From Lingula anatina (Eukaryota > Animalia > Brachiopoda), in assembly GCA_051362555.1 (NCBI GenBank), contig CM120649.1:16010567-16074566 (forward strand): a stretch of DNA of 64,000 nucleotides, given 5' to 3'. Positions 1,128 to 21,112 of the stretch are shown here, one piece after another. The notes under the pieces are model-generated. The model made no database searches, was not told the origin of the DNA, and was given only the letters and a program-made list of their open reading frames with translations. Each line of letters begins with the position of its first letter. The stretch's first letter is position 1. The position numbers and the translations under genes are program-made.

Positions 1128-2560
1128 CTAAGGCAACATCCCTTCCAATTTCCTTTTGATTCTTTCGATTTCACCTTTTTCATACGCCACTTGTTTGAAG
1201 TATGCTACATAGAGGGCGATGTTTCCCACCAAAACAGTTCCTATGACAACTCCAAGTACGATTTCATAGACCATAGCGTCCTTCAACTTTTGCAGGTCGG
1301 ATTCCTTTTCACCACTTGGGGTCCAGTACGGATTGTCGCCTTAAATTGTACAATAAAGGCGCTTTAACAGTTATTCTACAATACATTCAAATGACATACT
1401 AGACCATGAGAAGTTTTTTTTAGCTTATTTGCTTTACTATCAAGTATCTAAACCAGACCATGGTTCTAGCATAAATGAGCTAAAATAATCATAAGGGTGA
1501 AGGGTTTCTTGATTTCAAGGGACGTCAGAGTCTCTAACCACAGAGGATTTTATCTGTTTGGTTTGGTTTTATCTTTATCTGAAAAACTTCTAAGGGAAAT
1601 GAAAAAAGAACTGAAACTGAGCACATTGGAAGATGCACTTACCCTTTAGGAACATAAAGGAACCAACTGTCATAAATGGATTGAAGGTTGTAAAGCCAGT
1701 TGTTAAACTCCTAAATTGTGTTGAAGTTGAAGGCAATGAGCTCCTAAAAAACCTGGTAGTTGGGAAAAACGTTCTTGTGGACACTCCTGTAGTTTGAGCT
1801 GAAGTTGAAGGTAATGGGCTCCTAAAAAGCCTGGTAGTTGGAAAAAACGTTCTTGTGAACACTCCTGTACTTTGAGGTGGAGTTGAAGGCAATGGGCTCC
1901 TAAAAAATCTGGTGGTTGGAAGAAACGTTCTTGTGAACACCCCTGTAGTTTGAGGAGGAGTCTGCGTAACCAGTCTTGTAGTCGGAAGAATTGTCTGTCG
2001 AGGCAGAAGAATGATGAATCTGTCAGACATTCCCTTTTCTCCTTTCATTCCAAAGAATGGAAGGCCTTTAGCTCCCTGCATTCCCTTCTCCCCCGGACGT
2101 CCAACAGACCCTGGAAGTCCTTGCTGACCTGGATCCCCTGCCATGCCCTTCATCCCCTTCATGCCTTGCACTGAGTCACCTGGTGGCCCTTGGTTTCCCG
2201 GAAGTCCTATAAAATAAAGCTTGGAAGCATTAGTACATAAAGACAATATGTTAAAGAGGTTCAGTCAACCTCAAAAAGGGAATGTTATCGGATCTAAATT
2301 ATTGAAAACGTGTTTGGGAAATTAATCATAAATCGTTTACAATTTAGGGTCTTTATAATTGTCCAAATAATGTCAAATTTGTTTTAAAATAGTAAAATCA
2401 TTACATTGTGAATTCACAGTGAAACAATTTTATAGTGCTCGCTGTGCTTAAACTGATGTGCAACTTTTCAATGATATTTGATTGTGATACTTAACCTACC
2501 TTTTTGTTTTATTAGTAAAGTATTAGTGTATTGCTTTTAAGTATTAGCTTATTGTGTGTG

Positions 2561-2612
<52 letters not shown>

Positions 2613-16785: not shown

Positions 16786-19700
16786 ATGGAATGGAGGTAA
16801 ATGTTTCATTTTGATTGAACATTGATAAATTTTTGAAATACTTATACTGAAGATTTATTAATTTGCAACATTTATCATCAACATTATTACGTACCTTTGA
16901 GCAATTTTGTGAAAGAAGGTTTTGAAATATGAGGCGGCTAACGTTACTTGAATACCTGTGTATCAATGATCTTCTTTTAAATCAAATCTTTTGAATAACA
17001 CATTGGACAAGCGGCAACCACCAAATGAATAAATATTTTGCTGATTCCAGGTACTTGAGTGTCCCTGTATTCTCGATCATCCTTTATTTCCCATGTATAA
17101 GAGGTACGTTCTACAGACAAACGCAAAGCGCGTGTGTCGCGCGCTGGAATGCGTTTTGGAACATGCGTCTTCCCGGGGCTACTTCATTTCATTGGTTCTT
17201 TAATTAATTTCAATTTGAACTAGCTCCGTGACCTTATTCAATTTTTTGAGATTAAGTAATGACTTTCGCAGAAAAATGAATTTTTTTTGCCAATTTCTCG
17301 CTAACAGGATGCCCCGATGGTTGGGTGCTGTACGGGCCAAATCGCTACTGCTACAAATACTTCGACTTTCAATTAAACTTTACTGATGCTGAGGCTTTCT
17401 GTGGCATGCGTTTTGGAACATGCGTCTTCCCGGGGCTACTTCATTTCATTGGTTCTTTAATTAATTTCAATTTGAACTAGCTCCGTGACCTTATTCAATT
17501 TTTTGAGATTAAGTAATGACTTTCGCAGAAAAATGAAATATTTTTGCCAATTTCTCGCTAACAGGATGCCCCGATGGTTGGGTGCTGTACGGGCCAAATC
17601 GCTACTGCTACAAATACTTCGACTTTCAATTAAACTTTACTGATGCTGAGGCTTTCTGTGGCAATGTGCTAACCGGACAATTAGCCAGTATTCACAGTAC
17701 CGCCGAGCAGGCATTTGCCGCCAGCATAGTTCCTGTGTAAGTGCCTCTATGTATTAAGTATGTTGACTTAGCAGCTTTTGTCTAGACACCGTGCATATAT
17801 TTCGAAGCTTAGGTCATTAATTTCATTCATTTTTATCATAGCCAGCTACACCTCGAGTGTTAAGTAATTATACGAAAATAATCACCTAAGGCCAGACGCG
17901 TTCGTCCTTACATCTATGTAATCCCTGTTGCTGCACTAATTTTGTCAATATCTCTTTTTTCTTTTTTGAATGCTTTCCATTCTCCATTTTAATTTTAACA
18001 GGACTGACCCCCGCTGGGTGTGGATAGGACTTACGGACGCTGCCGTAGACGGTACGTTTACGTGGACCGACGGTAACTCAGTTGATTTCTTTGCCTGGCA
18101 GGCAAGACAGCCTAACGGCGGGGCGGTGGAGAATTGTGTCGGCTTGAACACGCTTCGGAGTCACACCTGGGCAGACAAGAAGTGTGACACAAGACTAACC
18201 TTTCTCTGTCGGGCTTTGTGGATAGGTAAGAGTAATTCTGGTAATTTAATAGTAGTTTCTATAGTTTGTGCGTAATCTTTTAAACTTGTGTTCGTCGGAA
18301 ATCTGTTGCCCTCAAACATTTGGTTTCTTATGACAACCAAGGTTTCGAGCGAGAAAGCTGTCCGCGGGTGTTCCACATGTAATTATGCTACAAGAGACCT
18401 CACTCCCTTTCACATCGTCTTCACCCGCGCGTCCTGCTGCTTAGGTGGGCCCTGTCAAACGCGGGGGATCCTTTAAAGTGACTGTAAAGAATAGTCCCTT
18501 TATTAATCGGTCAATTCCTCAAAATGTTATAATGCTTTCATGTAAAAATGCTTTAATGTGAAAAGTCCACAGTTCCGTAGTATGTTTAACATCCTAAGGG
18601 CCGTTTATAGCAAATGGTCACAACCAAGAAAGACACCTAACTTTTCCTATTGCCGAGACTAAGACTTAAGTAATCGGAAAACAAAGCAAATGATGACAAA
18701 TGCACACAACTACATGGGCGAATGAACAGTTTGAATTTGATTGAAAATCCTCATTTGGGTACATAATGCATGTCAATACAAATTTACCTGTAGCTGTCAT
18801 AGCCGTAACATATCAGAAGTCAGAAGCTTGGAAAAGTCCCCTGTTATTGTACATGTAGGTCCAGAAGGCCCGCCTGGTACAGAAGGACCACCGGGAACAG
18901 ATGGGCCTCCAGGAACAAGCGGTCCACCTGCCAGTAGTGGCCCGCCGGCTACAGGTGGGCCGCCAGGAACCCAAGGTCCACCAGGAACAGGTGGCCCTAC
19001 GGGAAATGACGGCCCTGCTGGAACTACTGGTCCTCCAGGATTGGACGGGCCTCCAGGGACAGTTGGACCACCTGGAACCAAAGGGACATCAGGTACGACA
19101 GGCCCTCCAGGCACGGAAGGACCCCAAGGAAGCTACGGGCCGGTGGGGTTTAACGGACCACCAGGAACCACAGGAACGCCAGGAACAGCAGGACCACCGG
19201 GACTGAAGGGCCCTCCTGGCACGATGGGGCCAACAGGAACCGAAGGGCCTCCTGGAACAAACGGACCTCCTGGTTCTCAAGGGCCACTCGGTAACCAAGG
19301 GCCCCCAGGTACAAAAGGTCCATTTGGACTTGTGGGGCCTCCTGGTATGTCAGGACCTCTAGGACTTAACGGTCCACCAGGCAGTGGCGGTCCCATTGGT
19401 CTTGCAGGACCCCCGGGAACTGGTGGTCCAAGTGGACTGAAAGGTGCCTCTGGAACGGAAGGTCCACAAGGAACGGGAGGCCCACAAGGTATATTTGGAC
19501 CCAGTGGCTCAGTTGGTCCACAGGGGAAAAGTGGGCCTACGGGCACAGTCGGCCCCTACGGTACCGGTGGGCCACCTGGCACTATGGGCCCTCAAGGAAC
19601 AGGAGGACCTCCGGGGATAAATGGCCCAAAAGGACACCCTGGGCCTAATGGGTTAGCTGGTCCTGTGGGAAAATCTGGACCAAAAGGAGAGAGTGGGCCT

Positions 19701-21112
19701 CCTGGGCTTCAAGGTCATGAAGGACCTCGAGGGTCAGTTGGACCAAAAGGTGAGTAAGCACCAGTTATTCTTTCAATTTTACTTGTACGTTGATTTATTG
19801 TATGCATAACTGGAACATCCAACTAACTCCTGTGTACATGTAGGTATAGTTTTAAGACCCCGACTTACATATAATATTTTACAAATAAAGGTATTGTTGG
19901 AGATCAAGGTCCACCAGGAGACTCAGTCAGAGGCAATAAAGGCATACAAGGCGCACAAGGAATCCCCGGCCAACCCGGATCACCAGGATCTATTGGTGAC
20001 CTAGGGATGAAAGGACAACCGGGACAAAAAGGCCTCCCCGTGGTAGGAATGAAAGGAGAAAAAGGGATGTCTCAACGCTTCATCATGTTACTGCCTAGAC
20101 GACCATTACAGCCAACTCCAGGGCAATTTAGACCCAATTTTAACAGCTTTGCCACACCTGCCAGACCGGAGGTTGTGCCCCTCAATACAATAAGGGCAAC
20201 CACGCAGTCGTCCTTTGATATATTCCAACGTAATCCTTTTCTACGATTTTGGGCCATGATGACAACTAGACCTACGACTTTTCCCACAACAATGGCAGTG
20301 AGAAGACTATCTCAGGCCACTACCTTCTTCCCGTTTGATAATCCCCGTCAAGCTGTCCTCGCTTCGAGCGGGTTCTCTGTATTATCCAGTGGTGGAAATG
20401 TTCCGTTTTTCCAGTTGTTTAAAGGTAAGAATTGCGAAGAACTGTGAAACTGTGGAGAACCGTGGATTTTTTTGTTCCATCTGCGTACGAAATACCATTA
20501 TGATGACCTGTTCGTCTCTCTGTTTTTCTTAACATTGTCACTTTGCGATACACTGTGTATGCATGTATTCAAACAAAATTGACGTAAGATATTGAAACTT
20601 GGCCCTTGCAACTTTCTGAAACAACTTTCTGAATGCTCGCATTTCATAGAATAAAAAATCGTGAAAACGAAATACCATGTTGATGAGATATTATATATGG
20701 CAATATATTTAAATATGCGTAAGAACATTGATGATAATGTACAGTATATACTGTATAACACGGAGTACGTGATCAAACTAAAATGAACATATGAAGTAAT
20801 TCAGATACAATATTTTCTATCTCTACAAATGTAACACATATGAGTTTTTCTTTTCAAGGTGACGATGAGCGGAACCCAAACGAGGATGGTGGAAAACATG
20901 ATATTGAAAAGCAAATGGAACGGTTGAAACTGCAAGAGGTAGTACTAGGTGTCATCATCGGGTCCATTTTGATTGGCACAGTGGTCCTATATGTGGCATA
21001 TTTCAAAACCGTCGCATATGAAAAACGAGAAATTGATAGGATTAGATTGAAGTTGGACCTACTGAGGTCTTTGGAGGAAGACCATGCAAAAAATTATACG
21101 GAAGTACATTAG
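16786..21112 (+). CDS. Type I membrane protein with signal peptide, C-type lectin domain, collagen region, Thr-rich stalk and TM helix (paralog B, ~712 aa)
   Basis: Exons: 16786-16796 (MEWR), 17051-17103 ([17 protein letters not shown]), 17565-17736 (CPDGW...YCY...AEAFC...QLASIHS), 18002-18225 (WIGL...QPN...ENC...WAD.KC...FLC), 18859-19749 (~99 Gly-X-Y), 19891-20424, 20859-21112 ([25 protein letters not shown]). GT-AG introns, consistent phases, total 2139 nt; AATAAA at 21216. Confidence 0.88.
17149..17662 (+). repeat. Near-perfect 257-bp tandem duplication covering the acceptor and 5' half of the first lectin exon of paralog B
   Basis: 17149-17405 matches 17406-17662 with differences only in a T-run; creates a truncated exon copy starting at 17308. 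Confidence 0.92.

Follow-up and report, generated by a model that had tools for sequence, protein, structure and literature searches.

Two paralogous genes of Lingula anatina predicted to encode type I membrane proteins with an N-terminal C-type lectin domain on a collagen-like spacer

The two genes and their support

The subject of this analysis is a pair of genes in a 64,000-nucleotide (nt) stretch of the genome of the brachiopod Lingula anatina (GenBank assembly GCA_051362555.1, contig CM120649.1, positions 16,010,567 to 16,074,566), referred to below as the window, which is intron-rich animal DNA of about 37% GC. The two paralogues, A (minus strand, 1128-7640) and B (plus strand, 16786-21112), adjoin head to head and have seven exons each, and in both the spliced frame encodes 712 amino acids without an internal stop. 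The order in both proteins is a likely signal peptide, a C-type lectin domain, a Gly-X-Y repeat, a stalk, a hydrophobic helix and a short tail. A preliminary description of the locus had proposed two seven-exon models with these ends, running from a lectin domain through about 120 triplets and a stalk to one hydrophobic helix, and translation, Pfam searches and hydropathy bear this out. A translated search of the window revealed no third copy. The features of the two genes, with Kyte-Doolittle hydropathy abbreviated as KD, are:

7630-7640, minus: gene A exon 1, start codon, 11 nt, as long as exon 1 of B; trace RNA depth of 0.12 in its bin
7400-7452, minus: gene A exon 2, likely signal peptide, 53 nt, ending at the predicted cleavage site; joined to exon 3 in 2 reads
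6917-7085, minus: gene A exon 3, first half of the lectin domain (Pfam Lectin_C E 0.0034, below cut-off); run X1 depth 0.53
4309-4529, minus: gene A exon 4, second half of the lectin domain, with the calcium/sugar-site motif EPD..E..WQD (Pfam Lectin_C E 5.7e-14)
3062-3970, minus: gene A exon 5, collagen-like GPP-GTx repeat, 909 nt, phase 1-1 (Pfam Collagen E 2.4e-24)
1643-2206, minus: gene A exon 6, end of the collagen (Pfam Collagen), S.RFI.LLPR motif and Thr/Pro/Phe/Arg stalk with imperfect repeats of about 26 residues
1128-1339, minus: gene A exon 7, juxtamembrane helix, predicted transmembrane segment at about 1194-1262 (KD 2.38), tail of about 22 residues, stop
16786-16796, plus: gene B exon 1, start codon, 11 nt (gene model)
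17051-17103, plus: gene B exon 2, likely signal peptide (gene model, hydropathy)
17145-17663, plus: 262-bp tandem duplication (98.9% alike) in gene B intron 2, with a truncated copy of exon 3 and a decoy acceptor at 17308
17565-17736, plus: gene B exon 3, first half of the lectin domain (Pfam Lectin_C E 0.0024, below cut-off)
18002-18225, plus: gene B exon 4, second half of the lectin domain, QPN..E..WAD, one calcium ligand changed (Pfam E 3.5e-12; PDB matches)
18859-19749, plus: gene B exon 5, collagen-like repeat, 891 nt, phase 1-1 (Pfam Collagen E 5.8e-40)
19891-20424, plus: gene B exon 6, end of the collagen (Pfam Collagen), conserved motif, stalk
20859-21112, plus: gene B exon 7, juxtamembrane helix, predicted transmembrane segment at about 20939-21007 (KD 2.66), tail of about 35 residues with a YxxV end, stop

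All 12 introns are of the GT-AG type, and their phases (2,1,2,1,1,1) are alike in A and B. Five of the six splice junctions fall in the same column of the A/B alignment and the sixth is one column off. Exon 1 (11 nt) and exon 2 (53 nt) have identical sizes in the two genes, the lengths of exons 5 and 6 are multiples of three, and along the exon chain a start codon can come only from exon 1 and a stop codon only from exon 7 (1128-1130 in A, 21110-21112 in B). An AATAAA lies at 21216, 3' of gene B exon 7. The duplication in gene B intron 2 may be genuine or an assembly slip; it is mirrored in gene A intron 2 (7283-7461), where an 85-bp duplicate (83.5%) of the exon 2 acceptor and start is found.

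By region, the two proteins are identical at 46% (lectin domain), 64% (collagen), 37% (stalk) and 43-48% (exon 7) of positions. Overall, nonsynonymous divergence (dN) is 0.42 and synonymous divergence (dS) 1.63, a dN/dS of about 0.26, with synonymous sites saturated in the lectin domain and the stalk; the membrane exon, exon 7, is constrained (dN 0.47, dS 2.7). Identity at third codon positions is 0.39-0.48 versus 0.59-0.80 at positions 1-2 in the lectin, collagen and membrane exons, and third positions are the less conserved in every region except the signal peptide. Because the two genes share exon structure, phases, open frames and codon-position constraint, the models are not chance frames, and A and B are intact paralogues under purifying selection.

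RNA reads of four (X1, X4, X7 and X9) out of nine available runs were mapped on gene A only, and the bin counts of run X1 leave aside five bins in which an intronic repeat was heavily read. In that run 11 of 14 exon bins had reads versus none of 11 intron-only bins (Fisher p 1e-4; depth 0.1-4), with depths of 0.3-2.9 in four of the five bins of exon 5 and 0.6-4.1 in exon 6, and the exon reads were all first mate on the plus strand, as expected of a stranded library and minus-strand RNA. Run X7 gave three exon bins and one intron bin, run X9 five exon bins and run X4 no reads on any gene A exon. Exon 7 was read at low depth in X1 and X9, and exon 4 had zero reads in all four runs. The sole join seen, between exons 2 and 3, is carried by two reads of run X1, below the tool's joint-listing threshold; only 8 of their 13 bridging letters match the window, and the divergent ones possibly come from the other allele or a paralogue. 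Two of three read differences in exon 6 are silent. As a check of the seven-exon models, the RNA thus goes part of the way: gene A has exon-restricted reads and the exon 2-3 join, and neither a lectin-collagen nor a collagen-membrane join had a read in the four runs.

These gaps would be expected if the models were wrong or decaying, with the lectin, collagen and membrane exons in separate transcripts, or with B broken by its intron 2 duplication. The decoy acceptor in B would, if used, stop the protein at residue 79, and a partial duplicate of exon 2 is present in A. Yet with synonymous sites saturated, both genes keep the same seven exons in the same order and phases, with an open 712-residue frame that starts only in exon 1 and stops only in exon 7, and we consider wrong or decaying models very unlikely.

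A repeat element in gene A intron 3 (5490-6640) was read on both strands in the four runs. Depth reached a maximum of about 290 per strand, and the reads contain many variant letters as well as inverted joints. The element is likely a multicopy non-autonomous transposon.

Lectin head, collagen-like rod and predicted membrane anchor

Residues 22-151 form a C-type lectin domain with the six-Cys pattern (Pfam Lectin_C, PDB matches). Its best matches are generic mannose-receptor-family domains, and in a search with A exon 4 one of eight candidates matched, a coral mannose-receptor-like protein. The sugar-site motif of A, EPD..E..WQD, is near-complete and aligns with EPN..E..WND of MBP-C (1rdi) and QPD..E..WQN of MRC2 (5ao5). 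Sugar binding by B is less sure because its motif is QPN..E..WAD, which is degenerate, part of the calcium motif being lost. Cysteines are confined to the signal peptide or the lectin domain in both proteins, with none beyond residue 148.

One may also consider a structural role for the same layout, in which the protein would tether the membrane to cuticle, skeleton or mucus matrix and the lectin domain would bind calcium, mineral or matrix protein rather than sugar. The lectin domain of A is acidic (19 D/E versus 5 K/R), the sugar motif of B is degenerate and both tails are short, all of which suits a tether, and echinoderm spicule-matrix proteins (SM50, OwSM21/24) likewise have a lectin domain followed by a C-terminal Pro-rich, low-complexity repeat region (PMC4336488; this and the other papers are cited for their matched passages). 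Those proteins, however, are small (20-24 kDa) and skeleton-occluded, their repeats are not collagen, and no membrane anchor is described for them in the matched text (PMC4336488), whereas the repeat of A and B is strict Gly-X-Y, their membrane exon is constrained and A has kept a near-complete sugar site. A purely structural tether therefore seems unlikely, although it deserves to be kept in mind.

The collagen-like part comprises 119 triplets in A (104+12+3, with three Gly-to-Ala changes) and 118 in B (103+12+3, with two), each with two 2-residue breaks. Glycine opens 101 of the first 104 triplets in A and 101 of 103 in B, GPP is the commonest triplet, and the repeat mostly alternates GPx and GTx, the GPP-GTx hexapeptide filling one exon of about 900 nt. 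There is no neck: the last lectin Cys is separated from the first collagen Gly by 8 residues in A and 5 in B. At 0.286 nm per residue the collagen would be 101-102 nm long, which agrees with the earlier estimate that the heads stand about 100 nm from the membrane, except that this figure covers the collagen alone and the stalk of 109-119 residues adds to it.

Some triplets also have glycine at Y (21 of 104 in A, 7 of 103 in B), and host-guest data show that glycine there weakens the triple helix. The frequency in A, together with the regular hexapeptide period, could be taken to mean that the repeat folds as a single-chain polyproline II bundle and that the protein is monomeric, its stalk short and compact. 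As far as is known, however, polyproline II bundles need loops, and here about 100 triplets follow one another without turn-forming loops, with GPP dominant and few glycines at Y in B; we give such a bundle hardly any credence.

A short motif directly after the collagen is kept between A and B, and the stalk that follows it, 109-119 residues long, is divergent. Thr/Ser, Pro, Phe and Arg (11-12 Arg) abound in the stalk, which has hardly any acidic residues. It had been called Thr/Phe-rich, which is accurate for Phe (14-15% in both proteins) and, for Thr, mainly in A, where Ser and Thr make up 37% versus 20% in B.

Hydropathy, charge and the pattern of the cleavage site were used to predict the signal peptide and the topology. 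A and B each contain a single strongly hydrophobic 19-mer, with a KD of 2.38 at A669 and 2.66 at B656, and the net charge flanking this C-terminal helix is +2 after it and -1 or 0 before it. The N-terminal hydrophobic 19-mer is weaker (KD 1.26 in A, 1.46 in B) and belongs to residues 1-21/22, which have a short hydrophobic core and a small residue at -1, the end of exon 2 coinciding with the cleavage site. The predicted topology of A and B is type I. A type II anchor was rejected, the N-terminal segment being short and weak, as was a glycosylphosphatidylinositol signal, 22-35 charged residues following the hydrophobic segment. When B exon 7 was folded as a single chain, residues 7-82 formed a continuous helix (mean pLDDT 84); three copies folded jointly scored 0.03, which is evidence neither way. 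The tail has about 22 residues in A and about 35 in B, where it ends in YxxV, and given this difference A and B may differ in trafficking. Viewed at the DNA level (1038-1127, minus strand), the A tail stops 13 residues before that of B and is without the Tyr motif.

The main product could alternatively be soluble, a reversed collectin freed by cleavage of the Arg-rich stalk or by transcripts that end before exon 7. Read-through at the unspliced exon 6 donor would add 7 (B) or 17 (A) residues before a stop, the stalk of A holds three R-x-x-R sites, and shedding is common in type II membrane collagens (PMC2064815). In contrast, neither ectodomain has a full furin site, B has no R-x-x-R, and exon 7 is constrained and has reads in two of the four runs, so that a mainly soluble product appears distinctly unlikely.

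Relatives, known systems and neighbouring genes

A search for relatives with the non-collagen part, as suggested at the outset, drew a blank: the exon 7 profile had 0 matches in 1.84 billion representatives, and B exon 7 matched none of 153 candidates among longer proteins. The profile of the collagen exon gave 1513 matches among 7982 scored, and in the best 120 of these 1513 neither PF00059 (0/120) nor any lectin, stalk or tail match (0/120) was found. A hydrophobic stretch followed the collagen in 4 of 121 proteins examined, none of them with a lectin domain. A metagenome scan returned at least 17 loci, which were collagen-only, with a lectin or exon 7 match in 0 of 17 among the matches listed. 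The immunoglobulin-collagen scallop protein P0036 was rejected, as it does not have this layout and its hydrophobic segment is N-terminal. Animal genes split by introns, and queries for an architecture, are poorly served by such searches, so that blank results prove no absence.

In the literature we found no description of a protein in which a lectin domain precedes collagen and collagen precedes a membrane helix, although architecture figures, supplements (e.g. of PMC5119243, PMC9835746 and PMC11797021) and database entries could hold one. Such a layout is absent from the matched text of PMC4336488, PMC5119243, PMC6321704, PMC11797021, PMC514892, PMC10381214, PMC2064815, PMC8878817, PMC9835746, PMC13554239, PMC4678570, PMC12549020, PMC8968730 and PMC11312191.

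The soluble collectins, i.e. mannose-binding lectin (MBL), SP-A and SP-D, share with A and B the combination of collagen and a C-type lectin domain. Their collagen is N-terminal to the lectin domain, and they have a coiled-coil neck and an N-terminal Cys segment that cross-links the trimers. In A and B, by contrast, lectin exons 3-4 precede collagen exons 5-6, the protein is predicted to be membrane-anchored, and there is neither a neck coil nor a cross-linking Cys outside the signal peptide and lectin domain (for the N-terminal collagen of collectins see PMC8878817).

Membrane anchor, helical segment, collagen stalk, distal head and short cytoplasmic tail are all found in CL-P1/COLEC12 (SCARA4), SR-A, MARCO and SCARA5. 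CL-P1 and the class A scavenger receptors are type II proteins with an N-terminal cytoplasmic tail. A and B differ from them in their N-terminal head, C-terminal anchor, signal peptide and longer collagen (118-119 triplets); in class A receptors the collagen is accompanied by an SRCR or lectin domain at the C-terminus (PMC5119243). The spatial layout would equal that of CL-P1 with the chain polarity reversed, and since CL-P1 already carries its lectin on the distal end of a collagen tethered to the membrane, the novelty lies in polarity and origin, not in function.

With MACIT collagens XIII, XXIII and XXV, COL-99 and gliomedin, the two proteins have in common a single pass, a predicted juxtamembrane helix and a collagenous ectodomain, which as in MACITs is interrupted (by the breaks and the 2-3 Gly-to-Ala changes per chain). 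MACITs are type II and carry a conserved C-terminal motif with two Cys (PMC4678570), whereas A and B are predicted to be type I, have no C-terminal Cys motif and bear a lectin head. Order and predicted topology are thus opposite to those of collectins and type II membrane collagens (PMC4678570, PMC2064815), as the preliminary description held, and A and B fall outside collectins, MACITs and class A scavenger receptors.

Layilin, chondrolectin, CD302/Bimlec and the selectins resemble A and B in having a signal peptide, an N-terminal lectin domain, a stalk, one membrane helix and a short tail. Layilin, chondrolectin and the selectins are type I single-lectin receptors, and to our knowledge the stalks of such receptors are without collagen. 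Bimlec is also type I (PMC514892). Searches brought out no sequence kinship of such receptors with A and B beyond the generic lectin domain, and the tail had no matches. Closest in polarity are the streptococcal proteins Scl1/Scl2, with an N-terminal head, a Gly-X-Y rod, and a C-terminal repeat and surface anchor (PMC8968730); these are bacterial and cell-wall anchored, their head is a variable trimerisation domain rather than a lectin, and the likeness is convergent only. In sum, A and B are real, well-supported gene models with an unusual and apparently undescribed arrangement of familiar parts.

Elsewhere in the window, the interval between A and B holds about three diverged tandem copies (11735-13764; 74-83% alike) of a unit of about 600-700 bp, which has no coding match to protein A or B, and a tandem array with a unit of about 210 bp, recognised by eye, lies downstream of gene B (22600-23500). 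Further along are a multi-exon family-31 glycosidase (27261-38250, plus strand; maltase/sucrase-like) with at least three trefoil domains, and a type II galactosyltransferase in a single long frame (43361-44230, plus strand; Pfam Galactosyl_T, E 1.4e-27). At least three ependymin-like genes follow (50665-62070), with weak Pfam matches below cut-off and signal-peptide exons near 55214 and 59755, as well as a broken Tc1/mariner-type transposase (52861-53726, minus strand), its helix-turn-helix and DDE pieces in separate frames.

Proposed assembly and origin, and significance

The best reading of A and B is that of a lineage-restricted type I lectin receptor, which gained its collagen spacer by exon shuffling and repeat growth. 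More specifically, we lean towards the view that both are type I, trimeric, long-reach lectin receptors on an inferred collagen helix and a mucin-like stalk. Several observations weigh against this view: the gaps in the RNA record (the silent run X4, exon 4 and the two key joins without reads, the imperfect match of the exon 2-3 join reads); the decoy acceptor of B, with RNA mapping confined to gene A; the signal-peptide region, which over 21 codons shows no clear constraint (dN 0.45, dS 0.56); the many glycines at Y in A; the 110-120 residues between the end of the collagen and the membrane helix; and the failure to find a homologue outside the window on which the layout could be tested.

In a receptor of this kind the signal peptide would be cleaved and the single C-terminal helix would anchor the chain, leaving the 22-35-residue tail inside. 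Triple-helix folding needs a nucleus. Three chains may gather at the membrane via the exon 7 helix or the post-collagen motif, and would then zip from C- to N-terminus; in type II membrane collagens a juxtamembrane coil seeds the triple helix (PMC2064815, PMC4678570). The lectin head, probably calcium-dependent, would stand some 100-130 nm off the membrane. Because both termini of the lectin fold lie on the side away from the sugar site, as used in type I lectin receptors, a C-terminal stalk would still point that site outward. The three heads, with no neck coil, would be loose at the tip and could provide avidity for microbial, matrix or neighbouring-cell glycans, glycan binding being more likely for A (EPD/WQD) than for B (QPN/WAD). 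Bound cargo might be held, or internalised via the YxxV tail of B.

As to origin, a simple lectin-stalk-membrane receptor probably acquired collagen exons of phase 1, which then lengthened through repetition of the hexapeptide. Insertion into a lectin-stalk-anchor gene fits, because phase-1 introns flank the lectin module as well as each collagen exon, and the lengths of exons 5 and 6 are divisible by three. These phase-1 flanks and the hexapeptide-built collagen exon also support the earlier proposal that the proteins were assembled independently of collectins.

All the parts are familiar, and the arrangement has so far been found at a single locus. According to PMC2064815, every transmembrane collagen is type II. 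A genome survey encountered mannose-binding lectins with collagen in vertebrates, cephalochordates and urochordates only (PMC11312191), and a review reports that echinoderms yielded no membrane collagens (PMC10381214). The chances seem about even that A and B represent a natural type I membrane collagen of animals, an undescribed family that rebuilds the CL-P1 layout with inverted polarity and folds its helix from the C-terminal anchor. If so, they would break the rule that all transmembrane collagens are type II, and would show cleanly how exon shuffling can converge on the design of collectins and scavenger receptors. The idea that a C-terminal membrane anchor alone can seed a collagen helix is reported from a study of engineered procollagen, and A and B would be a natural test of it.

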